The notes: generated by a model not told the origin, from the letters alone. A stretch of DNA of 64,000 bases from Rhodothermales bacterium (GCA_022821845.1 JAJECT010000019.1:65814-129813); one strand, 5' to 3'; positions 30,020 through 62,713 are shown, counted from the stretch's first letter. Numbers and translations are program-made.

Positions 30020-30139
30020 GCGTTGTTGCAGCGCAGCGAGGCGGTTTCCGGCGCTTGTGGAATCATACGGGCGCCTTTCCCGGTATGAGGGCCGCATGCC
30101 GGCTTGCCCGGACGTTTCTTCCGTACCCGTTTGCCAGCC

Positions 30140-31576: not shown

Positions 31577-31637
31577 CGGCGTCGGGGAAAAACGAAACGC
31601 CTGCGATGGCCTCGCCCGCAACGTATATTGCAACGCT

Positions 31638-33334: not shown

Positions 33335-35503
33335 TTATGAGGCGTCAAGGATTTGCCGCGCTTGCGGATGATTCGGCGCAAGGCGCAGCGCTTCCTGCGC
33401 ATACCGGCGCGCGGCGTCGTCCTCGCCCAGCAAGTACCAGGCAAGCGCCAGATTAACCAGCCCGTCCACATACGACGGATCGAGTTCCACGGCCCTCGAA
33501 AACCATTGGACGGCGATCTCCGGGCGCCCGTCGTTCATATGGAACGCGCCCAGATTCCCGTACGCAACCGGATTCTCCGGCTCGGCCCGCACCGCCTGCT
33601 CGAACAGGGCGCGGGCTTCCGTCAGGCGCCCGTCCTGCGCCAGCAGAAATCCCAGATTCCCCAATGCCTGCCCGCCGTCCGGATCCAGAAGAATGGCTTC
33701 GCGGAGCGACCGTTCGGCGGCGGCGCGATCCCCCTGCCTGAGGCGGGCCGTTCCCAAATTGAAATGGGCCGGAGCCAGCCACGGATACTCGGCGACCGCG
33801 GCCTCGTATTGCGCCGCCGCCGCGTCCAGTTCGCCCTGCGTCTCCAGATAGCGTCCGTAATTGACCCGAATATCCGCCCGGGCGGGCTGCGCGGCCAGCG
33901 CCCGCTCGTACAAATCCCGAATCGCCGCGCCCGCGCGCCCCAGCCGTTCGTACGTTTGCGCCAGGGCGTTAAGCCGCTCCGGTTTGGCTTCCAGCGCCAC
34001 GGCCTGCTCCAGCGGCTCCGCGGCGCGGGCCATTTCCCCCAGTTGCATGTACCCGTACCCCCGGAGATACTGGGCTTCGCCGAACGCGCCCGCCGCGTCG
34101 TCAAGCAACGTTACGCCCTGCCGGAGCGCCGTCGTGTCCCGATGCTGCAATCCCCGAATAACGTAGGCCATGCCTGCATAGGCGCCCGCCGAGTCGTCCC
34201 GGGCGTAGTACGGACGGAGCCGAATGCGTTCGACAGGCGCTTCGCCGTCTGGCGCGGCAGGGCCCTCTTCCCGGACCACGCGAATGTGGTGGTCCGTAAG
34301 CGTGGTATGCGGCGTGCCCGCCACGGACGCTTTCGGCATATGGCACGAAAAACAATGGGCGTCTTCGGCGTGCGCGGCGCGCATTGACGCTTCAGGCAAC
34401 GCGGCCTGCAATGCGGCCGGCGCGTGACAGGCCGTGCAGGCGGCGTTGAAATAATCGGGACCCGCCAGCCGGAACGCCTCGTGCGGATTGTGGCAGGTGG
34501 TGCAATCCATGGGCTGCGCCGATGCCTGCGTTTCGATAAAACAGGCGCTTTGCTTCATCAGGTCCGCGTGAGAAATCGCGTCGATCTCCTCCCCGGAATC
34601 TGCCGCGTCGGATACGTAGAACGCCATATGTTCGGAAAGCGGACGAGAGGGACGATAGTCGTAGGCGGCGCGCCCGTCCCGCAGCATCGACACCGTGGCG
34701 TGCAAATGGCATTGCTGGCACACGTCCAGGCGGCGTTCGAGCGAAAGGTGCGCCGGGTTCACGATGGTCTCGTCGATGTCGCCCGCCGGTTCCGGAGAAG
34801 CAAGGCGAGCCTCGACGTGCACGGACCCCGGCCCGTGGCATCGTTCGCACCCGATCCCGTGCGGCACCGCCTCGTATTTGCCGTCCACAAACGGCGTCGA
34901 GCGTGGATAACTGTTGTGGCAAGCCATGCAACGATCCGGAATAAGCCGGTCGAAACGGGTATTGGACACTTCGTATCCGGGGCTTAGGTCCCATTTTTCC
35001 TCCTGGGTATACCAGGTCAGGGGGAGTTCGAAGTACCGCCCGCCTTCTTCCACGAGATACGTCCGCGCCGCCGTGCCGCTGCCCACGACGTACTCCATTT
35101 CGCGAACCAGGACGTGCGTTTTGCTTCCGTCCGACCCCTGCCGGAATTCTTCGATCCAGAAACGGTCGCCCTCGCGGTACGGACGATAAGAGAAACCCCG
35201 GTTCGGGTCCTCCACGATCACGCCGTCGAACGCCTCGACCACGGCGGCGGCGCGCATGGGATAGAACGAATTCGCCATGCCGTGCTCCTCGAATCCGCGG
35301 TACTGCTCCTCATGGCAGTCGAAACAGGCTTCGTCCCCCGTAAAGTCGGCGGACAAGTTCCGAAAACGAATCTCTGCCTCGGCGGTCTGTCCGGCGGCGG
35401 GCCTGTCCTGGACGTCCGGAGCGTCTGCGCCGCATCCGGAAACCGCCGCGCCGCAGACCAGCGCAACCAACAGCAACAAGGCGGAACAGCGCATGGGGAC
35501 CAT
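33335..35503 (-). CDS. Multiheme c-type cytochrome (7 CXXCH) fused to a C-terminal TPR domain; lipoprotein
   Basis: Start MVPMRCSALLLLVALVCGAAVSGC (lipobox). Heme motifs are CFDCH, CMACH, CERCH, CQQCH, CTTCH, CTACH and CFSCH. The C-terminal third contains TPR-like repeats (YLRGYGYMQLGEMARAAEPLEQAVALEA..., NLGTARLRQGDRAAAERSLREAILLDP...). Confidence 0.85.
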   Translation of the reverse strand: MVPMRCSALLLLVALVCGAAVSGCGADAPDVQDRPAAGQTAEAEIRFRNLSADFTGDEACFDCHEEQYRGFEEHGMANSFYPMRAAAVVEAFDGVIVEDPNRGFSYRPYREGDRFWIEEFRQGSDGSKTHVLVREMEYVVGSGTAARTYLVEEGGRYFELPLTWYTQEEKWDLSPGYEVSNTRFDRLIPDRCMACHNSYPRSTPFVDGKYEAVPHGIGCERCHGPGSVHVEARLASPEPAGDIDETIVNPAHLSLERRLDVCQQCHLHATVSMLRDGRAAYDYRPSRPLSEHMAFYVSDAADSGEEIDAISHADLMKQSACFIETQASAQPMDCTTCHNPHEAFRLAGPDYFNAACTACHAPAALQAALPEASMRAAHAEDAHCFSCHMPKASVAGTPHTTLTDHHIRVVREEGPAAPDGEAPVERIRLRPYYARDDSAGAYAGMAYVIRGLQHRDTTALRQGVTLLDDAAGAFGEAQYLRGYGYMQLGEMARAAEPLEQAVALEAKPERLNALAQTYERLGRAGAAIRDLYERALAAQPARADIRVNYGRYLETQGELDAAAAQYEAAVAEYPWLAPAHFNLGTARLRQGDRAAAERSLREAILLDPDGGQALGNLGFLLAQDGRLTEARALFEQAVRAEPENPVAYGNLGAFHMNDGRPEIAVQWFSRAVELDPSYVDGLVNLALAWYLLGEDDAARRYAQEALRLAPNHPQARQILDAS

Positions 35504-35583
35504 ATCCAGGGCGGCGCGCAATCCGAGAAAAATTTTTCGACCTTTTCTGGCCGAACGGCGCAGGTCGCAAGCGGTAGACCGAA

Positions 35584-35835
35584 CTACCCGGCGAGAACCA
35601 CGGCGAACAAGGCAAGCGTAATCGCCAGATTTACGCCCACCATCCATTTAAGGGCATCAATCCCCGCCTTATTCGCAGCGATTTCTGCTTTCAGACCGGC
35701 AAGGTCGGAATGCGTAGCGGCTTCCTTACGGTGCTCTCCTACAGCGTTCGCAATAGCCTGGGCATGCGCGTTGGCTTGTTTCTGTTCAACACCTGCGGCG
35801 GTCAGGTTTTCTGCGATGGCAATCGTATCAAGCAT
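35584..35835 (-). CDS. DUF1640-family small coiled-coil protein with a C-terminal transmembrane helix
   Basis: MLDTIAIAENLTAAGVEQKQANAHAQAIANAV...DLAGLKAEIAANKAGIDALKWMVGVNLAITLALFAVVL matches the DUF1640 pattern (helical repeats, KWM, hydrophobic tail). Confidence 0.7.
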   Translation of the reverse strand: MLDTIAIAENLTAAGVEQKQANAHAQAIANAVGEHRKEAATHSDLAGLKAEIAANKAGIDALKWMVGVNLAITLALFAVVLAG

Positions 35836-35868
35836 GGCTTTTCGCGGAATAGTTTGACAGATATTTGA

Positions 35869-35909
35869 CAAAACCCCACGCGCCGCACAAAAGATCCCTG
35901 ATGCAAAAA
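35869..35909. repeat. Copy A of a 41-bp intergenic direct repeat (CAAAACCCCACGCGCCGCACAAAAGATCCCTGATGCAAAAA)
   Basis: Read directly. It is identical to 37706-37746 except at one position (A/G). It lies 14 nt after the stop of the 581-aa gene and 33 nt before the DUF1640 start, reading on the minus strand. Confidence 0.85.
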
Positions 35910-35923
35910 CGGGTTCCGTTCGT

Positions 35924-37669
35924 TTACCGGTTGACGACGCCGAACTTCATGACCCGCTCCCCGACGCCCGGCGCCGCAATATGAATGAAATACATGCCGC
36001 TTGCTACCGGCAAGTTGCTGTCCGTCGTGAGGTCCCAGTCCAGCGAGCGGCTCGGACCGTCCTTGGACAAGGTGCGAATGAGCGTTCCGTTCACCGTATA
36101 GACGCGAATCGTCGCCCGCCGGGGCATGTTCGCGAAACGCACCCGACGGTCCGTATACGCCGTCTCGTACGCCGAATAACCCCGGTACGGGTTCGGCGCA
36201 ATGCCGACATCGTCGAGCGAGGCTTCAAGCGCAAAAGCGTCGTCCGTCATGCGCTCCGCGCTTGTTGGCTCCATGGACGACGAAACGAACCCCGCGTCGA
36301 AAAACGCCTGGACGAACTTGTCTGCCTCCCGAAGCTGCGTAATGGAATCCAGGTTATCCGCGCCCTGCGCAAACAATATCCCGAACACGACCTCCTCGCT
36401 GTCGCCAGGCTGCATGGTAAAAGGCCCCGTGGACATTACGAAACGACGGTCGCCAGGCGTGTTCTGCCCGCCAGCGGCGTCGTTATTCACTTCACTCCAG
36501 AACTGCCCCGTCACCGGATCGCCCGGATAGGCGAATTTGACGACTTCGCCGTCCGTCTCAAAACCGGACCCATGGGCGGTGAGCGATTCTCCTCCTTTCC
36601 AGAACCCCTGTTGCATGTAGTATACCTCCTGAGCAAGCTTCGGGTCGGTCATGCCTCCAGAAATTCTGTTCACGAAATACATGAAACTGGTTACGCCCAG
36701 CGTATCGCCGTGGTCTGAAACAGGCCCCTTGAAAAAGTCATAGCCCACCGCAGGGGGAGGACCGTACACAGCATCCACAGCGTGGGCATGATACGCATAG
36801 CCAAGTCCAAGCGTCGTGTCTATACCCACGAAATCGCCTTCCTCGCCGCCAATATCGGGATCGGAAAAAATGGAAAGAAACGTATCGGTCAAGGGTTCGC
36901 TGCCCTTGTACGTAACGTTGTATTTGAAAAACGTCGTGTTGCCAAGCGCATCCGCGCGGTCGAACGCAAAGGCATGCACCCGCACTTCCACGCCGATCGG
37001 CGCAGACTCCGTGCTGCGGTGCGTATTGCCCACATCGTTCATGATCCACCACACCGCCTGATCCCCGATCAGGTCAGGACGGTCGCCGCCCGCAAGGTCG
37101 TAGTTTCCCTCGTCGCCGTCCCCGTCTATAACCGGGGCGCCCAAATCGTATGGCCAATCCGCCAGATCCGGCGCGGCCTGCCCCGTCGCCTCGTAGCTCT
37201 GAATGTCGCTCTGGTTTACCTTGTACAAGCGGTCGTACGCTATACAGTCGTCCGGATTCACCGGGCGCCCATCCGATCCCAAAGGCCCCGGCCAGAATTC
37301 GAAATCGCCGTATCGAGAGCCAGCTACCCGCAGATCGCTTCCGACCATGCCGCCTATCCAGAGGCCCATCGCATAGATGGGGGAATGCCCAGCGTCTTGC
37401 GGAACAAAATACGCCCCCATAAAACCATTTCCATAAGCCACGCTGCCGTTATTCAAAAGACGAACTTGAACGTTGTTGACGTCCAGGGCCTCATCCGCCA
37501 AACCAGCCCAACAGCTACCGGGTTCGGGGTCTGAATCGCCGGTTCGCAAAAGAACGGAGGTCTGCTCTTTCTTGTCCTCGTCGTCCTTATCCACACCCGC
37601 AAAAGCACTGGACGCAGGGATCAGGCACACAGCCAAAATCAGCGTCAGGTATCGTGGAAGATGCTTCAT
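35924..37669 (-). CDS. Secreted protein of unknown function: a conserved N-terminal module of about 460 aa plus a T9SS-type C-terminal sorting domain. Short paralog of 38881..42411.
   Basis: Start MKHLPRYLTLILAVCLIPASSAFA (signal peptide), then an acidic/lysine linker DKDDEDKKEQ. The N-module carries FEFWPGPLGSDGRPVNPDDC, WPYDLGAPVIDGDGDEGNYDL, WWIMNDVGN, NTTFFKYNVTYKG and FSDPDIG. The C-terminus reads IAPNPYRGYSAYE...ATIRVYTVNGTLIRTL...VASGMYFIHIAAPGVGERVMKFGVVNR. Confidence 0.85.
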   Translation of the reverse strand: MKHLPRYLTLILAVCLIPASSAFAGVDKDDEDKKEQTSVLLRTGDSDPEPGSCWAGLADEALDVNNVQVRLLNNGSVAYGNGFMGAYFVPQDAGHSPIYAMGLWIGGMVGSDLRVAGSRYGDFEFWPGPLGSDGRPVNPDDCIAYDRLYKVNQSDIQSYEATGQAAPDLADWPYDLGAPVIDGDGDEGNYDLAGGDRPDLIGDQAVWWIMNDVGNTHRSTESAPIGVEVRVHAFAFDRADALGNTTFFKYNVTYKGSEPLTDTFLSIFSDPDIGGEEGDFVGIDTTLGLGYAYHAHAVDAVYGPPPAVGYDFFKGPVSDHGDTLGVTSFMYFVNRISGGMTDPKLAQEVYYMQQGFWKGGESLTAHGSGFETDGEVVKFAYPGDPVTGQFWSEVNNDAAGGQNTPGDRRFVMSTGPFTMQPGDSEEVVFGILFAQGADNLDSITQLREADKFVQAFFDAGFVSSSMEPTSAERMTDDAFALEASLDDVGIAPNPYRGYSAYETAYTDRRVRFANMPRRATIRVYTVNGTLIRTLSKDGPSRSLDWDLTTDSNLPVASGMYFIHIAAPGVGERVMKFGVVNR

Positions 37670-37705
37670 GGATACAATGATGCTTTCCTGGCGTAGGTAT
37701 CCTTT

Positions 37706-37746
37706 CAAAACCCCACGCGCCGCGCAAAAGATCCCTGATGCAAAAA
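37706..37746. repeat. Copy B of the 41-bp intergenic direct repeat (CAAAACCCCACGCGCCGCGCAAAAGATCCCTGATGCAAAAA)
   Basis: Read directly. It follows the terminator hairpin after the PorV-like gene and lies 36 nt before the start of the 581-aa gene, reading on the minus strand. Confidence 0.85.
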
Positions 37747-37773
37747 AGGGCAGACCGCATATGCGGCCCGCCC
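37742..37773 (-). terminator. Rho-independent terminator after the PorV-like gene
   Basis: The minus-strand RNA reads GGGCGGGCCGC-AUAU-GCGGUCUGCCC followed by UUUUUU. This gives an 11-bp stem with two G-U wobbles. Those positions would be A-C mismatches on the plus strand, so the hairpin is strand-specific. Confidence 0.75.
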
Positions 37774-37805
37774 TTTTTCAACCATGAAAAACGGATGTCG
37801 TTCGC

Positions 37806-38846
37806 TCAAAGCGTGAACGTTGCAGCGAACACGTTGACGCTGCTGAACACCTTCGAAGGACGGTAGGCGTAATCCACCATCAACCGGCTCGGGCCGATCG
37901 GAAGCAAAAGTCCGCCGCCTATGTTCCACTCGGACCAGTGCACCAGCTCCTGTTCGGTGGCGACGTCCACGCCCCCGCGCACGAAGAGCAGGTTCTGGAA
38001 ATTCAATTCCAGCCCGCCTGCATACTGGTTCACGTCGTACGAATTAGACCGATAGTTCGCCAGCACCGTCGCGGTCATGTCGCTGGTGAACTCCCGCTCG
38101 TACACGGCCCCGAAATTCAGCATCGAAGGCAACTCCGATTTTACGTCCCGTATCTCGGCGGGCACTTCGTAGTCCCCAACCGTGCTGCTCGACGTAATGA
38201 TCGGGTCCTGAAGCCCTACGCCATTGAAACTGAACTGAGGCCCGAAGTTGCGCAAGCTGACGCCGAAGCGCAACCCGGACTCGCCCACGATGTAGGTCAT
38301 GCCCGCGTCCAGCGCCACGGTGCGGGCGTCGATATCGTCGATGCGCTGGCTAAGCCCCTTGAAGGTTATGCCCGCAGCGATGCGGTCCGTCAACTGGCGG
38401 CCATACGTGAGGCCCACGGCGATCGTGGCGGCGGACCAGGTGTTGTTCGGGTCGTTTTCGGGGTTCTCCACCGTGGTCTCGGGAATGTCCCCGTAATCCC
38501 AGCTCGTTACCGTAAGCCCGATATTGCTGGAACCGAAGCGCTGCGCCACGCCAAAGTAGTTGACGCCCGTATCCGCTATGTAATTCATGCGGCTGAACAT
38601 GGCGGTCGTGCTTTGATTGACCAGAATGGCCGCCGGATTCGAAATGAGCGCCTCTACGCCCGAAGCGCCGTTCATCCCGCCGGTCATGGTGGACGCCAGC
38701 GAAATCGTGCGCGGGGTAACCGGCACCGTCAACTCGGACAGCGCAGAGGTCCCGAACCGCTCGTTGCTTTGCCCCAGGGCCTCGAACGCAACGAGTCCCG
38801 GCAAGAGGGCCAACACGACGACAAGGTGTCGATATTGCTTTTTCAT
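37806..38846 (-). CDS. PorV/PorQ-family outer-membrane beta-barrel protein
   Basis: Signal peptide MKKQYRHLVVVLALLPGLVAFEALGQ. The N-terminal motif ...GGMNGASGVEALISNPAAI resembles the PorV G-x-G...NPA signature. The rest shows an alternating beta-strand pattern, ends in an aromatic-rich C-terminus (...VNVFAATFTL), and is 346 aa long. Confidence 0.6.
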   Translation of the reverse strand: MKKQYRHLVVVLALLPGLVAFEALGQSNERFGTSALSELTVPVTPRTISLASTMTGGMNGASGVEALISNPAAILVNQSTTAMFSRMNYIADTGVNYFGVAQRFGSSNIGLTVTSWDYGDIPETTVENPENDPNNTWSAATIAVGLTYGRQLTDRIAAGITFKGLSQRIDDIDARTVALDAGMTYIVGESGLRFGVSLRNFGPQFSFNGVGLQDPIITSSSTVGDYEVPAEIRDVKSELPSMLNFGAVYEREFTSDMTATVLANYRSNSYDVNQYAGGLELNFQNLLFVRGGVDVATEQELVHWSEWNIGGGLLLPIGPSRLMVDYAYRPSKVFSSVNVFAATFTL

Positions 38847-38880
38847 GGTTTTGAGCCTTTAGGTCTCGTGTTCGGTTCGA

Positions 38881-41800
38881 TTAGAAGATGTTGATGTTCG
38901 TTTCCCGGTTGATGACGCCGAACTTCATGACCTTCTCCCCAGCGCCCGGAACGTCGATATGCAGGAAATACATGCCGCTCGCTACCGGCAAGTTGCTGTC
39001 CGTCGTCAGGTTCCAGTCCAGCGAGGGGCTCGGACCGTCCTTGTACAACGTGCGAACCAGCGTACCGCTCACCGTATAGACGCGGATGGTCGCCGTCTGG
39101 GGCATGTTCGTGAAACGCACCCGCCGATCCTCGTTGCCCGTCTCGTACGCCGAACGGCCGCGGTACGGGTTCGGTACGATGCCGATGTCGTCGATGGAGG
39201 CCTCCAGCACGGAAGCGTCCTCCGTCGTGCGGCCCATGCCCGCCGTTACGATGCGGAACACGTCGCCTGGCTGGTGCGGCTTCGTGGTCGTGATGCGAAA
39301 CACGGTGCCCGTCTCCGGCCCGGACTGTAAGTAGCTGTCAGGACCCGTAGCCTTCGTTACGTCTCCGCCGTTCCACAATACGAACACCGTGCGGGACATG
39401 TAATTCCATACGTCGCACTCCGGTATTTTCGCATCCCCCGGCGGATAGTACCAGTCCGAACAACCGGCGTCCAACGCGCCCGCGCCCAGCTCCTCGTACT
39501 TCGCCATCGCGTCTTCGTAGCCCTGCTGCCCCGGCGTATCGTTCGTCGGATGCATTACGTACACCGGATCCGTCCACGGATCGTTGAACGCGCCGGACAC
39601 CTCGTGATCCGCCCAGTGCGCATCCGCTGTTGGATCCAGCGCATCGTACATAAGGCTCCACTTGCCGTCGTCGCCCAAATCGAACAGGAACGGCACCAGG
39701 CGCACGTCGTCCGAAGCGTCCGGGCTCGTACCCACGTTCCACCACTCGAAGGGCACGTCCACTACCTGTCCCTTGGTGACGCTTGACCATCCCGGCTTGC
39801 TCCATGCCTTGCCGTTGCCCGTGAAACGCACCTCTACGTCGTTCGGAACGATATGCCCAACCCCGTTGAACGACGCGCCAAAACCGCCCGTGAACTGAAG
39901 CGTTCTTGGCAGAAAGGCGCCGTAAGCTCTGCGATTCCCGTTCGGCCAGGTGTGAACGAACCAACCGAAATCGCTATTGTTCGTGGACTGCTGCGTAGGG
40001 ATGGCGGCTGCCTGTGGCGTTGGCACGCCGGCCGGGCCAGGAAATCCTGCCCAGTTCGCAGCGGCCCAGGCCGGGGGCGAAAGCGGGCCTGCCGCATTCG
40101 CCACCACTTGAAAAGCGTCGAACGCAGGCGTCGGCGCATCGATCGTAACCGCAAGGCCGTCGAATATCATAACGTCTTTCCCAAGCGGCGTCTCGTCGCC
40201 CGTGCGCGCAAAATAATCGACCCCGTCGATGATCACCTTCCCGTCGGAATCGCGCGTGATCGTGTAGGCCGCTTTGCCCGCGCCGACTGCGCCATCCGGG
40301 CCGGCCACTTCGTCCAGCGCCATGAACTCTACCGTGTAGCTCGCGCCGGTAACCGCCGCCGGGTCCACCACGCGCCAATAAACCACGCCCTGTCCGCTTT
40401 GCATAATCGTAACCGCCGAAGAATCCTCCGTCGCGAAATCGCTGTTCAGCGACGAACCGCCTTCCGTGGAGGCAATCTTCGACGGACGAAACGTAATGTT
40501 CGTCGGCGCGCTTTCCAGAATCTTCGGCGTGGAGTTGGGACTGTAGGCGTACGCAGAAATCCCGTAGTAATAATCCGTGTAGTTCGTCAGGTTCGGCAAT
40601 GCGAGGTTGTACCGTATCCCGCTATCCGTGCCCCGCGCCGACACCGCCGGAAGAAAATCGCCCACGTCCCCGTCGAATACATCGTCCAGCACCTTGGTGA
40701 CCCCGTTCGCCACATCGAAGGTGGCCACCAGTTCGCGCTTGTCCGAAGCAAACGACGACGTGGGGTACCGATAGATATTGAATCCCTCGAACGTATACGT
40801 CTTGTCTTCGAGCTCGAATTCGTCCAGGAACCGGTCCGCCACGTCGTACGCCAGGAGGTAGTTATCGCTATTCGACGGATAGCCCCACACGAGATGCGCC
40901 TGCCCGTCCAGTTCCGAAGCGTACAGACAATGACCCGATCCCGGGTGCAGCTCGGCATTGGAGGAATTCGAATTGCAAAGCGGCGGGGCGGGCGGCGGCA
41001 GTGGAATATCGAAGTCGGCGTCGTAGGCTGTCTGCGCCAGAATGTCCGCGGCCCGCAGCGCCGTAACGGAACTCAGGTTGTCCCCGGCCTGCGCAAACAC
41101 CACCCCGAACACGATGTCCTGGCTATCTCCAGGCTGCACCGTAAACGGCCCGGTGGATACCACCAGACGACGGTCGCCTGACTGATTTCGTCCGCCGGAA
41201 CCATCGTTGTTTACCTCGCTCCAGAACTCGCCGGTAACCGGATCGCCCGCATAGGCGAACTTGGTTGCCGGCCCATCCGTTTGAAAACCGTTTCCGCCCG
41301 TCGTAAGCGACTGTCCGCCACTCCAGAAACCCTGTTGTACGTTGTACACCTCCTGAGCGACATGCGGATCCTCCGTACCGTCGGGACCGCCGTTGATGAA
41401 ATACATGAAACTGGTTACGCCCAGCGTATCGCCATCCTCCGTAATGGGTCCCTGAAAAAAGTCGTAGCCCGCCGCGGGCGCCGGACCGTACACATTGTCC
41501 ATGGCATTGTCGTTGTACACATAGCCCAGGCTCAGCGTGGTGTCCACGCCCACGAAATCGTCCGACGCATTCCCCAAATCCGGATCGGAGAAAATGGACA
41601 GAAACGTATTGGTAAGCGGTTCCACGCCCTTGTACGTTACGTTGTACTTGAAGAATGTCGTGTTGCCCAACGCATCCGCCCGGTTGAACGCAAAGGCGTG
41701 CACCCGCACCTCTACGCCGATCGGCGCAGCCTGCGTGTTGCGGTGCGCATTCCCCACATCGTTCATAATCCACCACACCGCCTGATCGCCAATCAAGTCG

Positions 41801-42411
41801 GGACGGTCGCCTGCCGCAAGGTCGTAATTGCCCTCCGTGCCGTCCCCGTCTATCACCGGAGCGCCCAGATCGTACGGCCATTCCGCCAGATCCGCGGTCG
41901 CCTGCCCCGTCGCCTCGTAGTTCTGAATATCGCTTCGACTCACCTTGTACAGGCGATCATACGCCGAGCAATCGTCCGGATTCACCGGGCGCCCGTCCGA
42001 CCCCAAGGGACCCGGCCAGAATTCAAAGTTGCTGTACGTGGAGCCCGCGGTGCGCAACTCGTCCCCCACCATGCCGCCTATCCAGATGCCCATCGCATAG
42101 ATAGGGGAGTGCCCGGAGGCTTTGGGCACAATGTACTGCGCCTCGGCGCCGTTGCCGTAGGCAATGCTCCCGATATTGAAAAGACGAACGCGGGCATTGT
42201 TGGCGTCCAGGTCTTTCTGCGCCAGGCCCAGCGTGCACTTCCCGGGATCCGGACCCGATCCGCTGGTTCGCAGCAGGGTGGATGAAGACTCGGTTTGCCG
42301 CTTCTTCTTGTCCTTGTCGTCCTTGTCCTTATCCGTGTCTGCGAAAGCGCTGGACGCAGGGATCAGGCACGCGGCGAAAATGAACGGCAGGTATCGTGTA
42401 AGCTGCTTCAT
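38881..42411 (-). CDS. Large (1176 aa) secreted protein of unknown function: the same N-terminal module as 35924..37669, a central insertion of about 590 aa, and a T9SS-type C-terminal sorting domain
   Basis: MKQLTRYLPFIFAACLIPASSAFA, then DTDKDKDDKDKKKRQ. The N-module is co-linear with the short paralog (FEFWPGPLGSDGRPVNPDDC, WPYDLGAPVIDGDGTEGNYDL, WWIMNDVGN, NTTFFKYNVTYKG). The central region has an FN3-like stretch, YTFEGFNIYRY. The C-terminus reads VPNPYRGRSAYE...ATIRVYTVSGTLVRTL...ASGMYFLHIDVPGAGEKVMKFGVINRETNINIF. Confidence 0.85.
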   Translation of the reverse strand: MKQLTRYLPFIFAACLIPASSAFADTDKDKDDKDKKKRQTESSSTLLRTSGSGPDPGKCTLGLAQKDLDANNARVRLFNIGSIAYGNGAEAQYIVPKASGHSPIYAMGIWIGGMVGDELRTAGSTYSNFEFWPGPLGSDGRPVNPDDCSAYDRLYKVSRSDIQNYEATGQATADLAEWPYDLGAPVIDGDGTEGNYDLAAGDRPDLIGDQAVWWIMNDVGNAHRNTQAAPIGVEVRVHAFAFNRADALGNTTFFKYNVTYKGVEPLTNTFLSIFSDPDLGNASDDFVGVDTTLSLGYVYNDNAMDNVYGPAPAAGYDFFQGPITEDGDTLGVTSFMYFINGGPDGTEDPHVAQEVYNVQQGFWSGGQSLTTGGNGFQTDGPATKFAYAGDPVTGEFWSEVNNDGSGGRNQSGDRRLVVSTGPFTVQPGDSQDIVFGVVFAQAGDNLSSVTALRAADILAQTAYDADFDIPLPPPAPPLCNSNSSNAELHPGSGHCLYASELDGQAHLVWGYPSNSDNYLLAYDVADRFLDEFELEDKTYTFEGFNIYRYPTSSFASDKRELVATFDVANGVTKVLDDVFDGDVGDFLPAVSARGTDSGIRYNLALPNLTNYTDYYYGISAYAYSPNSTPKILESAPTNITFRPSKIASTEGGSSLNSDFATEDSSAVTIMQSGQGVVYWRVVDPAAVTGASYTVEFMALDEVAGPDGAVGAGKAAYTITRDSDGKVIIDGVDYFARTGDETPLGKDVMIFDGLAVTIDAPTPAFDAFQVVANAAGPLSPPAWAAANWAGFPGPAGVPTPQAAAIPTQQSTNNSDFGWFVHTWPNGNRRAYGAFLPRTLQFTGGFGASFNGVGHIVPNDVEVRFTGNGKAWSKPGWSSVTKGQVVDVPFEWWNVGTSPDASDDVRLVPFLFDLGDDGKWSLMYDALDPTADAHWADHEVSGAFNDPWTDPVYVMHPTNDTPGQQGYEDAMAKYEELGAGALDAGCSDWYYPPGDAKIPECDVWNYMSRTVFVLWNGGDVTKATGPDSYLQSGPETGTVFRITTTKPHQPGDVFRIVTAGMGRTTEDASVLEASIDDIGIVPNPYRGRSAYETGNEDRRVRFTNMPQTATIRVYTVSGTLVRTLYKDGPSPSLDWNLTTDSNLPVASGMYFLHIDVPGAGEKVMKFGVINRETNINIF

Positions 42412-42453
42412 GAGCGTATGAGGCGTTGCGTTCGGTAAAATTTCCTGATCACG

Positions 42454-45400
42454 TTAAAAGTTGAGCGCGAATCCCAGTCGGAACCGGCGGGGCCTGCTGT
42501 ACATCAGGCTGGAAGCCGACGTATGCCTGCTGCCCACATTCACCGGGCCGCCAATGTACGTATTGTACAAAAACGCCGTAGAGGCAGGATCCGGTTGCGT
42601 GGCAAGATACCCGCGTCCGCCATCGGTCATCAGATACCCGTCGGTGTTGGGCAGGCCGGTAGACCGGAAAACCGCCAGCACGTTCTGCGTATCGAACAGA
42701 TTCTGCACGATCAGGTAGGCCGTGAGCGAAGAAGTCCCCACGCGGAAGCGCCGGTCCAGCCGCACATCGATGCGCGAGGTGGACGGAAGGCGCGCCGAAT
42801 TTACGGAACCGATCGCGTCGTCGGTGAAACTGTCGTTCACATTGAACGACGAGCCGCCCAGCGCGGTGTACGCCATGCCGCTGCCATACCGGGCCAGGAT
42901 GTTCAGGCCCATGTTCTGGAGCAAGCGATTTCCCCCGATGGAAGGCCCTTCGCCTTCGCCGAAGCGATAGTCCACCGAAGCGTTCATCGTATGCCGCTGA
43001 TCGAAGTCCGCCGGGGCAATGGTGTTTGGGAACACCGATCCGCGCCAGACGATCACCGACGTGGCGCCGGCGTCCGACCCCGTGCCCTGCGCGAACGCCA
43101 GCGTATAGTTGGCCGTCACGGCCAGGTTGCGCGTCCGCCGCAGGTCAAACCCGAACTCGACGCCCTTGGTGGTCGTAAAGTCCGCGTTCAGGTACGTACC
43201 GTAGGAGGGGAAGCCCCCTATCAGGCGACGGTTGCTGATCTTGTTCTCCTGCGTCCGGTAGAACCCGGAGATCGTAAGCGCCGTGCTGGTTCCGAGCCGC
43301 TGCCGGAAGCCCAGTTCGTACTGCACGGTCCGTTCCGGCTTCAGTTTCGGATTCGCCGTACGGGAATTCTGCGTAGTGATTTCCTCGTAGGCCCGGAACG
43401 TCGTGAACGCAGCCTCCGAGGGACGCTGGCTGGTTACGTTGTAGGAGGCGAAGAACACCGCCCGGTCGGTAACCGGGAAGCTGACCCCGATGCGGGGCAT
43501 GAACGTAGCCTGCGGCGTATACTCTTCGAACGCAGTAGAAATAGGTTCGTCGGTCGGCCGCACCTGACCGGAAAGGTCGTTTACGATGCGCAGCGCATCC
43601 ACGCGGGAGCCTGCCGCATCGAAGAAATTCCCGTCCAGGTCCCGATATCCGACCACGTCGCCTGAATCGTTGAAGTACACCGCATCGCCCGAACCAATGC
43701 CGGAGGGCGCGCCATCTACCGATCCCGCCCGGATAATGGGCCGCGGGGCGTAGATGTCCTTCAGCACCGGCGTGTTGTTGTCGAACACCTCGAGGCGTAC
43801 GCCAAGGTTCAGGATCAGGTCGCGATACTCGATCTTGTCCTGCAAATACCCGCCGTAATAGATGGGCTGGCGCGGCTCGACATACAATGCCTCCTCTTCG
43901 TTCTCCCGATCAAAGTACGCCTGAATATTCTGCTCGTTCACTTCCTTCTGCCCCCGAAAATCGTAGCCGTAGTAGCTGGTGCGAGGCCGGAAGGCGTTGA
44001 ACGGCAACTCGCCGTACGTGGCGTAGCAGGCATCCTGTTCGCAATTATCGTCCTGGGCGTACCGGGACAGCCCGAAACCGCCTATGCTATACCAGCGCTG
44101 GGTAAACGTGCGGTATTCCCCGCCAAACTCCAGCTGATGCAAGCCAATCTGCGCCGTAGCGTTCCCGGATACCTGAAACGTTTTCCGGTCCTGCTTCTGG
44201 AACGTGGCCAACGGACTGCCAGGCAAAGAGAACGTAATCCCCACAGCCGATCCCCCGCCTGCCGTGCCGTCCGCCCTGTACAGCGGGCCGTACCCCGCGC
44301 TCCGCAAAGCGAAATACCGGCTTACCGTCTCCAGATAATCGCCCTGAAGGTCTCCGTAGGTAAACGCTTCTTCCACCTCGCCGGAAAATCCGTTGGGATA
44401 CAGCAGATAGTTGTAATCCTGGTACGACGCGTCGATCTGGTAGAAGAAATTCGAGGCGAAACGCTGGCGCAAGGTGCCGTAGACCCGCCAGGTATCATCC
44501 TCCCGGTGATAGAACGACTGCGTATTGAACACATGCCTGCCATACCCGAGCGACTCGGACCGCTGGGTTTCGTACGCGCCGCCTACGCGCAACGTAATGG
44601 TTTGCGTAGGCTGAATCGTGAAATTACCGGTTAAAATCGTCTGATTGAACGGGCTGTCTTTCGACGGCTCCAGCGTAAAGTCTTCCCGCCGGTACGTATC
44701 CGGCGCATTGATGAGCCCACCTCCGTCGAGTGCATACCCCTCGGGAAGGTTTAATAAGGAAGCCAGCGAATCCGGCTTAATGAGCTCCTCGTTGTCGAAG
44801 GCGGCCTGGGCCGCGTCCCACGGAAAGGGCAGATACAGAGAATCTCCGGCAGGCCCGATGGCCCGCACCACCTGCGGATTGGCGTTGAGCGCGGCCAGCT
44901 GGTCCTCGCTAAGCTGGTACGTGGACACGCCCCACGGACTGGAATCGTTTTGTCGGCCGTACTGCGCGTTCACAATGAAGCTGAGGCGTCCGGGAAGAAT
45001 GGGTCCGCCCAGCGAAATCTCGCCGAGGCTATGCCCGTAACTGTCGAGCCCTTGCGAAGTATAGGCCCCCACGGTGCCGAAAAAGCTGTCGGCGCCGCCC
45101 TTTGTCGTAATCGACACCACGCCCGCCTGGGCGTCGCCGTACTTGGCGGGAATGGTTCCGATCAGCATTTCCTGCTCCTGAATGGCGATGCGCGGAATGG
45201 CCTGCCCGCCCGATATCCGTACGCCGTCCACATAATACGCGAGCTCCTGTTCGCGACCGCCGCGCACAAAGAGTCCCGTCCCCTCCGACGTAACCACGCC
45301 GCTTTGCAAGGACGCCACATTGGCGACGCCGCGGATCGGGAGCAACACCAGATCGTCGCTGTTCATCACGCGCGGCGCCCCGATCGCATCCTTCTGGATA

Positions 45401-45771
45401 ATCGGGCGTTCGTACTCGACCACGATTTCTTCCAGTTCGGCGCCGGGCGTGAGGCTGAAATTCAACTCCCGGGTATAGCCGGCGTTGATTTCCACGTCGG
45501 ATATCGTCTGGGCCTGATACCCCACGAAGGAAGCCGTCACGTCATACGTCCCCACAGGCACGCCAATGACGAAATAGTTGCCGTCTATGTCCGAAGCCGT
45601 CCCAAGCAGGGTCCCGACCAGCACGACATTGGCGCCGGGAAGCGGTTCGCCCGTGTCGGCGTCCGTAACGACGCCAGAGAGTTTACCCGTGTTTTGCGCC
45701 AGCGCGACCGCGGGAATGACGAACAGAACGAATACGGTCGTAACGCACCGGAGCAGGGTCCGTCGCAACAT
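42454..45771 (-). CDS. TonB-dependent outer-membrane receptor with an N-terminal carboxypeptidase-regulatory-like domain (1105 aa)
   Basis: Signal peptide MLRRTLLRCVTTVFVLFVIPAVALAQ. CarboxypepD_reg: KLSGVVTDADTGEPLPGANVVLVGT...GNYFVIGVPVGTYDVTASFVGYQ. Plug: LLPIRGVANVASLQSGVV...FVRGGREQELAYYVDGVRI. Terminal barrel strand: RFRLGFALNF. SD GGAGG lies 7 nt upstream of the ATG. Confidence 0.9.
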   Translation of the reverse strand: MLRRTLLRCVTTVFVLFVIPAVALAQNTGKLSGVVTDADTGEPLPGANVVLVGTLLGTASDIDGNYFVIGVPVGTYDVTASFVGYQAQTISDVEINAGYTRELNFSLTPGAELEEIVVEYERPIIQKDAIGAPRVMNSDDLVLLPIRGVANVASLQSGVVTSEGTGLFVRGGREQELAYYVDGVRISGGQAIPRIAIQEQEMLIGTIPAKYGDAQAGVVSITTKGGADSFFGTVGAYTSQGLDSYGHSLGEISLGGPILPGRLSFIVNAQYGRQNDSSPWGVSTYQLSEDQLAALNANPQVVRAIGPAGDSLYLPFPWDAAQAAFDNEELIKPDSLASLLNLPEGYALDGGGLINAPDTYRREDFTLEPSKDSPFNQTILTGNFTIQPTQTITLRVGGAYETQRSESLGYGRHVFNTQSFYHREDDTWRVYGTLRQRFASNFFYQIDASYQDYNYLLYPNGFSGEVEEAFTYGDLQGDYLETVSRYFALRSAGYGPLYRADGTAGGGSAVGITFSLPGSPLATFQKQDRKTFQVSGNATAQIGLHQLEFGGEYRTFTQRWYSIGGFGLSRYAQDDNCEQDACYATYGELPFNAFRPRTSYYGYDFRGQKEVNEQNIQAYFDRENEEEALYVEPRQPIYYGGYLQDKIEYRDLILNLGVRLEVFDNNTPVLKDIYAPRPIIRAGSVDGAPSGIGSGDAVYFNDSGDVVGYRDLDGNFFDAAGSRVDALRIVNDLSGQVRPTDEPISTAFEEYTPQATFMPRIGVSFPVTDRAVFFASYNVTSQRPSEAAFTTFRAYEEITTQNSRTANPKLKPERTVQYELGFRQRLGTSTALTISGFYRTQENKISNRRLIGGFPSYGTYLNADFTTTKGVEFGFDLRRTRNLAVTANYTLAFAQGTGSDAGATSVIVWRGSVFPNTIAPADFDQRHTMNASVDYRFGEGEGPSIGGNRLLQNMGLNILARYGSGMAYTALGGSSFNVNDSFTDDAIGSVNSARLPSTSRIDVRLDRRFRVGTSSLTAYLIVQNLFDTQNVLAVFRSTGLPNTDGYLMTDGGRGYLATQPDPASTAFLYNTYIGGPVNVGSRHTSASSLMYSRPRRFRLGFALNF

Positions 45772-45930
45772 GTGCTACCTCCTGTGATTTGGATGATGTG
45801 TGCCTGCAACGCCAGACGCTTCGAGGGGAGCCCGCGCCGGGGGTTGCCGTGTATTAGGTGTGCATACTAATATTATTGAGGGGGCGGTTGTTCCGGGCTT
45901 ACATCTCGTATCCGGAACGAATGTTTCCCG

Positions 45931-45959
45931 ATGTTACGATATTGTTACCGTTTTGTCAA
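45931..45959 (-). promoter_or_regulatory. Sigma-70-like promoter candidate for the TonB-receptor operon (TTGACA-17 nt-TAACAT)
   Basis: The minus strand reads cTTGACAaaacggtaacaatatcgTAACATcggg. The -35 is at 45959-45954 and the -10 at 45936-45931. This implies a 5' leader of about 150 nt before the ATG at 45771. Confidence 0.45.
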
Positions 45960-46007
45960 GCGCTCCGACGATTTAACCGAAAATATTTTTGAGAAAATCC
46001 TCAAAAA

Positions 46008-47591
46008 TCACACATCCACCCTGCACACGTCCTCTACGCCGTCCAGCGACGAAATCTCCGCGACGACCGCCGCCGGAACTGCTTCGTCCACGGTAACCGC
46101 CGTCAGGGCCATTTCCCCCTTGCCGGCCCGCCCCAGCGCCAGCGCGCCTATATTAATGTCGTTGCGGGCCAGAATCCCCCCTACCGCCGCCAGCATGCCG
46201 GGCCGGTCCGCATTCTTGTACACGATCATGTGGCCTTCCGGCTTGATTTCCAGCCAGTAATTGTCGATCCGCACCAGGCGCGGCTCGTCCCGGTCGAACA
46301 CCGTGCCCGCCACCGTGCGAACGCCGTCGTCCGTCTTCAGTCCAATCTGCAATAAATTCATGTATCCGCCGGGCACCGTATCCCGCGCTTCCGTTACGCG
46401 TATGCCCATGTCCTCCGCAAGAAACGGCGCATTGATCAGGTTCACCGGCTCCGTAACCCATTTCGACAGGACGCCGCGCACGGCGGCCACGGTCAACACT
46501 TCGGAATACCGGCGCGGAACCTCCCCCCGGCACCCTACGGTAATGCCGCGAATGCGCCCGCCTCCCAACTGACCAACCAACTGTCCAAGGCGGTCCGACA
46601 AACTCAAATAGGGCTGCGCATCCGGCTGCGCCGCCATCTTGATGGCCAGCGCGTTCACCGGCGTCTGCACCGCCTCGCCGCATAGCGCGCGAATGACCTG
46701 CTCGGTAATCTGCACGGCCACCTTCTCCTGGGCCTCTTCCGTCGAGGCCGCGATATGGGGCGTAGCGATCACCTTCGGATGCCGGAGCAACGCGCGCAGT
46801 TCGGCGGGCGGCGGCTCCGCGGAATACACGTCCAGCGCCACGCCCCCCACCTGGCCGCTATCCAGCGCGGCAAGCAGGTCCTGTTCCTCGACGATGCCGC
46901 CCCGGGCGCAATTCACGATGCAAACCCCCTTGCGGCACTGCGCAAGCGTTTCCTGGCGCAGCAGGCCGCGCGTGGCGTCGTTCAGGGGCGTATGCACGGT
47001 AATGAAATCGCTCTGGGCAAGGAGTTCGTCCATGCTCGCCAGCCGCACGCCGATGCGTTCGGCGGCCTCCCGCGACAACACCGGGTCGTACCCGACGAGG
47101 TTCATTCCGAACCCGGCCATCCGCGCGGCCACTTCCCGTCCGATCTTGCCCAACCCCACGACGCCAAGCGTTTTCTCGTAGACTTCGGACCCGGTGAACG
47201 CCTTGCGCTCCCATTTGCCCTCCGCCACGGAGCGGTTCGCCTGCGGTACGCGGCGGGCCATGGAAAGCAGCAGGGCGCAGGTGTGCTCGGCGGTCGAAAT
47301 CGTATTGCCGGACGGCGCATTGATCACCAGAACGCCCCGGCGGGTGGCCGCGGCGAGGTCGATATTGTCCACGCCGACCCCGGCGCGTCCTATGACCTGA
47401 AGTTTCCCGCTCGCCTCGATCAGGTCGGCCGTAATCGTAGTGCCGCTGCGAATGATCCAGCCGTCCGCCTCCGCGGCGAGTTCCCGCAACGCGTCCCCGG
47501 ATTGCTTGAGCCGAACGACGGGCGTAATCCCGCGGGCCTCGAGCATGTCGATGCAGATCGGATCGACCGCATCGGTAATGAGCACCTTCAT
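46008..47591 (-). CDS. serA: D-3-phosphoglycerate dehydrogenase (long form with ASB and ACT domains)
   Basis: MKVLITDAVDPICIDMLEARG..., GRAGVGVDNIDLAAATRRGVLVINAP, VVGLGKIGREVA, C-terminal ACT-like DRPGMLAAVGGILARNDINI. Confidence 0.92.
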   Translation of the reverse strand: MKVLITDAVDPICIDMLEARGITPVVRLKQSGDALRELAAEADGWIIRSGTTITADLIEASGKLQVIGRAGVGVDNIDLAAATRRGVLVINAPSGNTISTAEHTCALLLSMARRVPQANRSVAEGKWERKAFTGSEVYEKTLGVVGLGKIGREVAARMAGFGMNLVGYDPVLSREAAERIGVRLASMDELLAQSDFITVHTPLNDATRGLLRQETLAQCRKGVCIVNCARGGIVEEQDLLAALDSGQVGGVALDVYSAEPPPAELRALLRHPKVIATPHIAASTEEAQEKVAVQITEQVIRALCGEAVQTPVNALAIKMAAQPDAQPYLSLSDRLGQLVGQLGGGRIRGITVGCRGEVPRRYSEVLTVAAVRGVLSKWVTEPVNLINAPFLAEDMGIRVTEARDTVPGGYMNLLQIGLKTDDGVRTVAGTVFDRDEPRLVRIDNYWLEIKPEGHMIVYKNADRPGMLAAVGGILARNDINIGALALGRAGKGEMALTAVTVDEAVPAAVVAEISSLDGVEDVCRVDV

Positions 47592-48233: not shown

Positions 48234-49109
48234 TTACGCGGTCGCCAGTCGCTCCTTCACCGTCTCGCCGATCACCGCCGGGTTCTCGATGACCGTCACG
48301 CCCGCCGCCTGCAACGCGGCGATCTTTTCCTCCGCCGTCCCCTTGCCCCCGGACACGATGGCCCCGGCGTGCCCCATCCGCCGTCCCGGAGGCGCCGTCC
48401 GGCCCGCAATGAATCCGAACACCGGCTTCGTCATATGGTCCCGCGCAAAGGCCGCGGCTTCTTCTTCCGCCGTCCCCCCTATTTCGCCGATCATTACGAC
48501 AGCCTCCGTCTCGCCGTCCGCCTCGAACAGCTGCAACACGTCCACGAAACTCGTCCCCGGCACGGGGTCCCCGCCGATGCCCACCGCCGTGCTCTGGCCA
48601 AGCCCCTGCCGCGTAAGCTGGTCCACGGCTTCGTACGTGAGGGTGCCGGAACGGGACGCCACGCCCACGGAGCCGGGCTTGAAAATCATGGCGGGCATGA
48701 TGCCGACCTTGGCCTCGTCGGGCGTCAGGGCGCCGGGGCAATTCGGCCCGACGAGCCGGACGCCCTTGCGCTGCATGGCGTGATAAACCGGAACCATATC
48801 CCCTGCGGGAATGCCTTCCGTAATGCATACTATTACTTGTATGCCCGCGTCCGCCGCCTCCAGAATGGCGTCCGGGGCGAACGCAGGGGGCACGAAAATC
48901 ACCGACGTATTCGCCCCCTCCTGCGCCACCGCCTCGGCCACCGTGTCGAACACGGGCTTGCCGAGATGTACGCGACCGCCCTTGCCGGGCGTCACGCCAG
49001 CCACCAGCGCAGTGCCGTACGCCAGCATTTGTTCGGAATGAAAAGTGCCCTCGGAACCCGTAAAGCCCTGCACGAGCAAGCGAGTGTTTTTATCGACGAG
49101 AATCGCCAT
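48234..49109 (-). CDS. sucD: Succinate--CoA ligase (ADP-forming) subunit alpha
   Basis: [66 protein letters not shown]. No sucC lies upstream in the window (gatA does), which is worth noting. Confidence 0.93.
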
Positions 49110-49223
49110 AACGATCAGAATAAGCGACGAAAAACCGGAACGCGCCCAAGATACGGACTATCCGTACGCAGAACCGGCGAAGATTTGGAAGATTCGCAAG
49201 ATGGCGCGGAGGCCCTCCGCTCC

Positions 49224-50729: not shown

Positions 50730-50866
50730 CGGACGAACGAGATTCAGTGCCGACGAAAGAAAAATGGGGGCGGCAGGCGAGCGGCGCTATAGCCAGCGCC
50801 TGTGGAAAACATGCGCGGCGCAGACCCGGCAGGAGGCCGGACCAATCCCGGAGTCGCTTGCGCGGA

Positions 50867-62705: not shown

Positions 62706-62713
62706 GGATTGCG

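Follow-up and report, generated by a model that had tools for sequence, protein, structure and literature searches.

A TonB-dependent receptor, a type-A-like sorting-domain protein and a PorV/PorQ-family barrel as a candidate SusD-independent uptake unit in Rhodothermales

Within a 64,000-nucleotide stretch of DNA from a Rhodothermales bacterium (GCA_022821845.1 JAJECT010000019.1:65814-129813; hereafter the window, guanine-cytosine (GC) content ~62%), three adjacent genes encode a TonB-dependent receptor, a secreted surface protein (the large protein) and an outer-membrane barrel of the PorV/PorQ family (Table 1). We consider it probable that this triad constitutes a SusD-independent uptake unit, in which the surface partner of the receptor is exported by the secretion system of type IX (T9SS) and held in place by its own barrel. 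The features that can be read directly from the sequence are Sec leaders on all three proteins, receptor features that agree with TonB coupling, a T9SS-type tail on the large protein, the PorV/PorQ barrel, a strict pairing of the genes and a subfamily of tails particular to that pairing. NCBI annotates the triad genes piecemeal, and in the literature that was searched the triad is not described as a system.

A preliminary description of the region had grouped four minus-strand genes, i.e., the triad and a short paralog of the large protein, with gaps of 42 nucleotides (nt) between receptor and large protein, and 34 nt between large protein and barrel. Open reading frames (ORFs), coordinates and spacing are all reproduced (4 of 4 ORFs); the conserved unit, however, comprises three genes, and the short paralog resides in a sublineage-specific insertion that is absent from five relatives. 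Nor does the Bacteroidota setting assumed at that stage apply in the strict sense, as the organism belongs to Rhodothermales, phylum Rhodothermota (NCBI taxonomy).

Table 1 Coordinates of the triad and associated features in the window (aa, amino acids)
Feature	Position	Strand	Content or basis
TonB-dependent receptor, 1105 aa	42454..45771	-	Pfam, NCBIfam, ortholog alignment
Secreted surface protein (large protein), 1176 aa	38881..42411	-	Signal peptide, Lys/Asp-rich linker, N-module, insertion, sorting domain, tail
N-module, residues 56-467	41011..42246	-	β-supersandwich, predicted structure
Central insertion, residues 468-1060 (~590 aa)	39232..41010	-	String of immunoglobulin (Ig)/fibronectin type III (fn3)-like β-sandwiches, absent from short paralog
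T9SS type-A-like C-terminal sorting domain, triad-specific subfamily	38905..39231	-	NCBIfam, motifs, model
7-residue tail ETNINIF, hydrophobic end	38884..38904	-	Predicted disordered on its own, predicted local distance difference test score (pLDDT) <50
PorV/PorQ-family outer-membrane barrel, 346 aa	37806..38846	-	NF033709
Short paralog, 581 aa from ATG	35924..37669	-	N-module and triad-type sorting domain, without tail and central insertion
Lineage-specific 2.2-kb insertion	35501..37733	.	Short paralog and 83-aa gene; comparison with relatives
Intrinsic terminator hairpin 3' of barrel gene	37742..37776	-	GGGCGGGCCGC, ATAT loop, GCGGUCUGCCC, U6; folding
Sigma-70-like promoter candidate 5' of receptor gene	45931..45959	-	TTGACA, 17 nt, TAACAT; consensus match only

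The receptor comprises a signal peptide, a CarboxypepD_reg N-terminal extension (residues 31-118), a TonB-box region (EEIVVEYERP), a plug, a barrel of the 22-strand type and a terminal Phe. It matches PF00593 (2.7e-26) and PF13715 (1.1e-19), and scores 21.6 bits against Plug, which is under the cutoff of 23.9. An alignment of 30 receptor orthologs shows conservation of the N-terminal extension, of the terminal Phe and of RGG and YVDG as plug motifs, with a moderate degree of conservation in the TonB-box region. The general features of TonB-dependent transporters (plug, TonB box and 22-strand barrel domain) can all be recognized, and energy coupling is predicted. Against TIGR04056, the SusC/RagA model, the receptor reaches 63.7 bits for a cutoff of 368.25, with the match limited to residues 30-227, which places it outside the SusC subfamily. 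A SusD/RagB lipoprotein was not found immediately downstream of the receptor, where the encoded protein has no SusD family match. The proposal of a SusD-less receptor is therefore borne out by both the model score and the absence of a SusD-like gene.

The barrel scores 106.8 bits against NF033709 (cutoff 90), with residues 35-344 aligned to model positions 3-324 of 326. Its scores against the PorQ model NF033711 (80.3 bits, cutoff 220) and the PorV model NF033710 (21.8 bits, cutoff 250) identify it as a family member that is nearer to PorQ than to PorV, and that is neither the housekeeping PorQ nor PorV. There is no Pfam match to FadL (Toluene_X) or PorP/SprF, in agreement with the PorV/PorQ-like rather than FadL-like identity expected beforehand, and NCBI names the orthologs 'PorV/PorQ family protein'.

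Two further barrels of this family lie in tandem on the minus strand near the edge of the window (61785-62717 and 62714-63751), with scores of 128.7 and 97.2 bits for a cutoff of 90, which gives at least three PorV/PorQ paralogs within 64 kb of genome. Just outside the window, and with a 4-nt overlap, the tandem is preceded by the gene for a 529-aa BNR-type β-propeller with a PorZ-like sorting domain (L085 8415-10004). This combination of sorting-domain protein and barrel, without a receptor, is a second unit of that kind.

The large protein and the short paralog have no match to any Pfam family, and neither N-module nor central insertion matches Pfam or NCBIfam models, so that the N-module is, as noted earlier, not assignable to a family; the motifs by which it had been described are present in both proteins. 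The signal-peptidase-I leader assigned to the large protein is likewise upheld. Cys15 is unconserved and positioned inside the hydrophobic core, and a reading of the large protein as a lipoprotein was rejected on these grounds. AlphaFold2 models the 1176-aa protein with a mean pLDDT of 84.2 and a predicted template modeling score of 0.68, the pLDDT of the N-module being mostly >90. The module contains a conserved pair of cysteines, Cys59 and Cys148, which probably form a disulfide, as well as conserved aromatic and acidic residues.

Structure prediction combined with Foldseek, a check proposed at the outset, relates the N-module at the fold level only to supersandwich domains at the N-termini of GH116, GH94 and dextran dextrinase (E = 1e-8 to 1e-5), and a non-catalytic N-terminal domain of a polysaccharide lyase is among the matches. 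A glycoside hydrolase or lyase reading of the module was rejected, since the matched region is the non-catalytic supersandwich and there is no (α/α)6 domain. A profile search of PDB sequences returned nothing beyond weak FlgD and sorting-domain matches.

The short and large paralogs align with 72% identity over residues 1-467, and with 77% identity over the last 109 residues; since the alignment extends on both sides, residues 468-1060 of the large protein are identified as an insertion. For this region Foldseek reports fibronectin, alpha-2-macroglobulin and S-layer protein at low probability, and it is the most variable part among orthologs, with 26-45% identity in the more distant ones.

The N-module defines a large family, with 6,695 cluster representatives when E <= 1e-3 is required and 1,945 when the limit is 1e-30 (clusters counted at 50% identity). 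Elsewhere its fusion partners are Big_9, cadherin-like, leucine-rich-repeat (LRR), DUF5122 and lamin-tail domains plus a sorting domain; in the seven multidomain members that were scanned, no fusion to an enzyme domain was found. Many members stand alone or in tandem arrays of 4-7 copies without a receptor. Arrays of three to seven such genes, with ~35-50% identity to the window module, are present in other Rhodothermales (L046, L080, L081, L055, L037, L070 and L072); each paralog carries a canonical T9SS sorting domain, and neither receptor nor barrel is present. The arrays resemble a diversifying surface-protein family.

By its motifs and predicted fold, the C-terminal domain of the large protein is T9SS type-A-like. 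Residues P1080, N1081 and P1082 (the PNP motif), G1146 and Y1148 (GxY) and the near-C-terminal Lys K1163 do not vary among 66 sequences, and AlphaFold2 predicts a β-sandwich at residues 1077-1166. The near-terminal Lys is the one residue of type A domains that is reported to touch PorV in all of the structures solved in one study (PMC10994853). The window tail matches the PorZ C-terminus with 27.7 bits. All of the orthologous tails (22/22) match TIGR04183 (E <= 0.01, best 2.4e-6) as well as the PorZ and PorU C-termini, with a best E-value of 7e-12 for PorZ, and PF18962 is matched by 34 of 61 short-form family members. The earlier assignment of a T9SS-like sorting domain thus holds with respect to the invariant motifs and the orthologous tails, but the window tail itself falls just under the TIGR04183 cutoff. 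Rhodothermus marinus and Salinibacter ruber are listed as positive for the T9SS C-terminal domain (PMC5053529).

The triad domains form a special tail subfamily with the pattern ...ASGMY.IHV..GVGE.V.KFGVVNR, followed by seven residues with a hydrophobic end. This subfamily is present in 41/41 barrel-linked N-module proteins, and 63 barrel-less paralogs have canonical type A ends. The 7-residue tail was recognized by regular expression in 37 of the 41 and by eye in the other four, and occurs in none of the canonical-tail paralogs. Bit scores of the window tail are 100, 80, 69 and 54 against four distant triad tails, compared with <=31 against 58 canonical paralog tails of its own order. Special tails without an adjoining barrel are those of a second copy in L008, of L065 and of the window short paralog, in which the last seven residues are lost. 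The subfamily is hence specific to barrel pairing, or to duplicates of paired genes. PorZ and PorU are the two T9SS proteins with retained tails, bound by PorQ and PorV, respectively, and it was proposed in a 2023 review that tails of this kind are shielded from cleavage by cognate PorV-like barrels (PMC10202324).

In a scan that used a single genome for each species, 175 N-module relatives were found, from which 77 loci were kept; every named relative belongs to Rhodothermales or Rubricoccaceae, with two cultured Rubrivirga strains among them. Receptor, N-module protein and barrel follow one another in this order on one strand in 40 of the 77 loci, i.e., in 40 species genomes, with one triad locus per genome in the sample and each from a different species genome. 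The lowest identities to the window proteins in these triads are 42% for the receptor, 45% for the N-module and 44% for the barrel. Five further loci that were looked up bring the barrel-bearing loci to 45; in all 45 the barrel adjoins the N-module protein, and the receptor precedes wherever the contig reaches upstream (the receptor match in L047 is fragmentary). The intergenic gaps of 5-126 nt suggest a single transcript. In cultured Rubrivirga and Rubricoccus, the window-type triad or large protein is present. Within Rhodothermales the flanks are shared, with serA upstream in about half of the loci and a gene for a cytochrome-tetratricopeptide repeat (TPR) protein downstream in ~38/45; because the triad sits in a conserved block, synteny inside the order is weak evidence when taken alone.

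A metagenome scan extended the comparison to 80 loci, which were classed by hidden Markov models; the seed was a different PorV/PorQ barrel that lies directly after another receptor (L043). A receptor directly before the barrel was found in 15 loci, receptor plus sorting-domain protein plus barrel in 9, sorting-domain protein plus barrel in 15 (13 of them too short upstream to judge) and the barrel only in 39 (27 too short upstream), and two loci were without a full barrel ORF. Where upstream DNA suffices, the receptor is linked in 24 of 38 loci of this biased sample. The distant triads, nine or ten in number, occur on contigs with a GC content of 0.39-0.68, and have identities to the window proteins of 25-36% for the receptor, 28-45% for the sorting-domain protein and 23-31% for the barrel. 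The gene order persists with different flanks outside Rhodothermales, and mere genome collinearity, i.e., the shared serA, cytochrome-TPR and oxidoreductase flanks, was therefore rejected as sole explanation of the triad. The anticipated synteny in relatives is thus seen both in the 40 Rhodothermales species genomes and in distant lineages. Two loci of the same metagenome sample, L151 (3916-7908) and L161 (4185-7400), encode a C25 peptidase and a Reg_prop propeller, respectively; both proteins have a sorting domain, and in each locus the gene for a PorV/PorQ-family barrel comes directly after. These porU-porV-like and porZ-porQ-like adjacent pairs, from uncultured bacteria, serve as positive controls.

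The locus from which the seed was taken (L043 1495-8594) represents a second conserved architecture, with a TonB-dependent receptor directly before a PorV/PorQ-family barrel (171.8 bits) and genes for two lipoproteins as flanks of the pair; one of these lipoproteins is NHL-like and 448 aa in length. Homologs of one or both lipoproteins occur in most of the 15 metagenome loci with a receptor directly before the barrel (L089-L106, L112-L120). Such loci suggest a more general association between receptors and barrels of the PorV/PorQ type.

One distant triad, L129 (GC 0.39), resides among glycan-degrading enzymes in a β-glucan locus. The order of its genes is a carbohydrate-binding-module (CBM)-like protein with canonical sorting domain, a receptor (928 aa), a protein of 1065 aa, a barrel (341 aa), GH16, an ORF of 272 aa and GH3; read by eye, the CBM-like protein is possibly a CBM9. 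The GH16 β-1,3-1,4-glucanase (3axd, 4e-55) has a malectin-like module and a sorting domain, and the GH3 enzyme is a β-glucosidase (5jp0, 4e-206). Over its full length, the 1065-aa protein is homologous to the window large protein (hhalign probability 99.95%, E = 2.6e-38, 725 columns), and the homology spans N-module, insertion and tail. No SusD-like protein was present among the L129 ORFs examined. Co-location of enzymes and a regulator, by which a polysaccharide utilization locus is defined, is not seen in the window; L129 has GH16 and GH3.

Published annotation of R. marinus describes similar arrangements. In the alginate locus, the gene for a TonB-dependent receptor is followed by genes annotated as T9SS type A sorting domain protein and as PorV/PorQ family protein, then by a hypothetical gene and after it by alginate lyases (PMC9530828). 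In the xylan locus, the receptor Rmar_1070 is followed by the sorting-domain protein Rmar_1071 and by two more hypothetical proteins, the first of which is Rmar_1072, and a separate SusC/SusD pair is located beside this group (PMC6987092). The tonB-hypA-hypB genes and the genes from Rmar_1071 on were left as hypothetical and without interpretation by the authors (PMC9530828, PMC6987092). Proteins of ~700 aa with an N-module were considered as equivalents of R. marinus hypA and rejected, since both proteins that were looked up stand alone. The GH16/GH3 locus and the annotation of the R. marinus loci give indirect support to the earlier claim of an uptake unit, with uptake itself inferred. Our best guess of the ligand is a glycan, from the fold likeness and the contexts in L129 and R. 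marinus; the single-copy, order-wide conservation of the window type may point to a more basic nutrient.

In the mechanism that we propose, all three proteins would cross the inner membrane by Sec, as predicted from their signal peptides, and the large protein would then cross the outer membrane via the T9SS by means of its type-A-like C-terminal domain. In place of cleavage and lipopolysaccharide linkage, the barrel encoded by the adjacent gene would capture and keep the domain of the special subfamily, and thereby fix the large protein at the surface as PorQ holds PorZ and PorV holds PorU; gene pairing and the co-occurrence of tail and barrel point in this direction. With the barrel beside the receptor, N-module and Ig-like domains would bind the ligand, most likely an oligo- or polysaccharide, and hand it to the receptor for TonB-powered import, as the conserved gene order and the glycan-degrading neighbors of distant homologs suggest. 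More tentatively, the triad may be a widespread and ancient third type of TonB-dependent uptake machine, in which a T9SS-cargo partner sits on its own, transporter-docked PorV/PorQ-type barrel, the type-A subfamily acts as a permanent anchor that bypasses the general PorV/sortase route, and the whole replaces SusC/SusD in polysaccharide loci of Rhodothermota and other lineages.

Several points weigh against an uptake unit of this kind. Association with the receptor, T9SS dependence, uptake and substrate are all inferred. The window sorting domain scores 16.7 bits as part of the full-length protein and 21.8 bits as isolated tail against TIGR04183, under the cutoff of 23, and the window large protein has no significant match to PF18962. 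The fold match of the N-module is weak, with TM-scores of 0.2-0.3 and ~9% identity. Most N-module paralogs do not adjoin a receptor, and for this reason the N-module itself is not a receptor-partner domain; most of its paralogs stand alone or in receptor-less tandem arrays. The window triad lies among housekeeping genes, and beside it there is no glycan-degrading enzyme, regulator or inner-membrane transporter. The frequencies in the metagenome sample are biased by a seed barrel that was already receptor-linked, and the R. marinus parallel is one of annotated gene order.

It is conceivable, although we regard it as unlikely, that the large protein and barrel represent a T9SS cargo with a private carrier or anchor, of adhesin or structural function, and that the receptor imports an unrelated substrate, its tie to the pair being one of co-expression or history only. 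The fusion of the N-module to adhesin-like Big_9, cadherin-like, LRR and DUF5122 domains, the many N-module paralogs that occur alone or in receptor-less arrays, the sorting-domain/barrel pairs that lack a receptor (window edge, porU-porV-like and porZ-porQ-like) and the absence of catabolic genes near the window triad would all agree with such a function. However, all of the 45 barrel-bearing loci that have sequence upstream show a receptor ahead of the pair, and the 24 receptor-linked loci among 38 in the metagenomes, albeit a biased sample, have unrelated flanks and very different GC contents. Intergenic gaps of 5-126 nt suggest one transcript, and the distant homolog and the R. marinus examples belong to polysaccharide loci, in which a partner for the receptor is to be expected.

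A transient role of the barrel, as a dedicated shuttle that draws the cargo from the T9SS translocon in the manner of PorP/SprF with type B cargo, and whose cargo is subsequently cleaved and then attached to lipopolysaccharide or released without forming a lasting complex, appears quite improbable. Cognate pairs of shuttle and cargo genes are established for type B sorting domains (PMC12618676), PorV itself is a carrier (PMC10994853), and the Lys that contacts PorV is invariant in the triad tails (K1163). Yet these tails have their best matches in retained tails, namely those of PorZ and PorU, the barrel stands closer to the anchor PorQ, and a mere shuttle leaves unexplained why the receptor gene is kept with the pair across lineages. 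The preliminary description had the partner presented by the T9SS and a PorV-like shuttle; the PorV/PorQ barrel and the type-A-like domain agree with this, but a permanent anchor fits at least equally well. Very improbable, in our judgment, is a receptor that works outward in the manner of Oar from Myxococcus and exports the large protein, with the barrel aiding assembly and the T9SS uninvolved. The receptor does possess the CarboxypepD_reg extension, plug and barrel of the Oar type (PMC6434023), and PF25183 is among the precomputed Pfam matches on orthologs. This architecture is nevertheless common to SusC and dominant in Bacteroidetes (PMC6434023) and does not discriminate, whereas the cargo has a T9SS-type sorting domain with all conserved motifs and paralogs with bona fide PF18962, and the barrel belongs to the PorV/PorQ family of the T9SS.

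The SusC/SusD (RagA/RagB) pairs and utilisomes of polysaccharide utilization loci in Bacteroidota and the triad share a TonB-dependent transporter with a CarboxypepD_reg-type extension that is encoded immediately upstream of a surface partner, and distant or published triads also reside in glycan-enzyme loci (GH16 and GH3 in L129; alginate lyases in R. marinus). In contrast to the TPR-like SusD lipoprotein, the triad partner is all-β, with a signal-peptidase-I leader and a T9SS sorting domain, and the triad always includes a third gene, that of the PorV/PorQ-type barrel; the window copy is without enzymes or a regulator. The pairs PorZ-PorQ and PorU-PorV from the Porphyromonas gingivalis T9SS attachment complex likewise combine a type-A sorting-domain protein with an adjacent gene for a PorV/PorQ-family barrel. 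The triad differs in its cargo, which does not belong to the sortases or the proteins of lipopolysaccharide delivery and contains a new N-module together with Ig-like domains; it also includes a TonB-dependent receptor, and its barrel fails the PorQ and PorV equivalog cutoffs; retention of the tail in the triad is, moreover, presumed.

In SprB-SprF of Flavobacterium johnsoniae, the common principle is a private barrel beside the cargo, with specificity in the sorting domain (PMC12618676), however, the triad domain is type-A-like and not type B (TIGR04131), and its barrel belongs to PorV/PorQ and not to PorP/SprF. Type A domains are all recognized by PorV according to the same work (PMC12618676), and the triad, with a type-A-like domain and its own barrel, would be an exception to this rule. 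A structural likeness exists to BamG-BamH in the Bacteroides BAM complex, where a small FadL/PorV-like barrel packs against a large barrel and its loops hold a surface protein (PMC12578637); in that complex BamA is the large barrel, a lipoprotein serves as the partner and the role is membrane-protein assembly, so that the analogy would be structural only. The alginate tonB-hypA-hypB genes of R. marinus (PMC9530828), from the same bacterial order, have the same annotated gene order as the window; the alginate and xylan copies, compared here by annotation alone, lie among characterized lyases and xylanases. With Oar of Myxococcus xanthus the triad shares the domain architecture of the receptor only, and the T9SS-type signal of its cargo argues against a common mode of action.

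SusC/SusD is the textbook model for nutrient capture in Bacteroidota and related lineages. If the proposed function is correct, an alternative to it would change how uptake loci are recognized in genomes, since predictors of polysaccharide loci key on SusC/SusD pairs and would miss triads. It would furthermore assign a second job to PorV/PorQ-type barrels, and challenge the view that every type A sorting domain uses the general PorV. The ~6,700 clusters (at 50% identity) of N-module proteins, which are without a Pfam model, gain a first testable context. Rhodothermus marinus is genetically tractable and, with a published alginate locus and its characterized lyases, offers itself as test organism. 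The triad is conserved, widespread and testable in cultured organisms, and bears on the SusCD-centered picture of uptake and on PorV as sole carrier of type A domains.

The insertion that holds the short paralog is confined to a sublineage. The 2.2-kb segment is absent from L009, whose triad proteins are 97-99% identical to those of the window, and from L006, L010, L011 and L016. Direct repeats of 44 nt flank the short paralog (37706-37749 and 35870-35913), and point to gain or loss of the insertion by recombination. Besides the short paralog, the ORF of which opens at a TTG (37708), the segment contains an 83-aa gene with coiled-coil and transmembrane character (35584-35835). The short paralog is modeled by AlphaFold2 with a mean pLDDT of 83.9. 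With only 72% identity to the large gene next to it, it did not arise as a recent local copy; it would be a later duplicate that probably shares the triad barrel or competes for it.

A parallel to the short paralog is seen in L008 (14861-21388), where the triad is followed by two extra full-length copies of the large protein, with 77-81% identity in the N-module and the special tail on at least the first of them. In L004 (5258-8787) the large gene is split into ORFs of 869 aa and 307 aa, and in L047 (6320-9456) the receptor match is broken into several pieces; each case reflects an assembly error or a pseudogene.

The terminator hairpin behind the barrel gene had been described as clean and strand-specific. 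The hairpin is real, with a folding energy of -33.6 kcal/mol (z = -5.4) that none of 200 shuffled sequences equals; a consensus terminator scan did not report it. It is preceded by an A-run as well as followed by a U-run, hence it is not strictly strand-specific and could act in both directions. The promoter candidate upstream of the receptor gene is the single promoter-like site in a scan of 35000-47000, where 3.9 are expected from shuffles, and as a consensus match carries no functional weight.

Neighboring genes of the triad in the window include serA and genes for a GTPase, the cytochrome-TPR protein and a flavin (pyridine nucleotide-disulphide) oxidoreductase. Among the window neighbors that were checked, no regulator, glycoside hydrolase or peptidase adjoins the cluster, in agreement with what had been noted before. 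T9SS core genes (SprA/Sov, GldKLMN) were not identified in the subset of window ORFs that was scanned.

Two long ORFs in the window have no Pfam or NCBIfam match. One of 807 aa (48369-50792, plus strand) overlaps a well-supported amidase gene on the opposite strand (49224-50729), and probably arises spuriously from the high GC content of the DNA, and one of 744 aa (29768-32002, minus strand) may be a real gene of an unassigned family. The cytochrome-TPR gene (33335-35503, minus strand) encodes a lipoprotein with a DmsE/GSU2203-like region, in which seven CXXCH heme motifs lie, and with a TPR domain at its C-terminus. In ~38/45 triad loci this gene comes after that of the barrel, on the same strand, and in the window the terminator and the insertion stand between the two.

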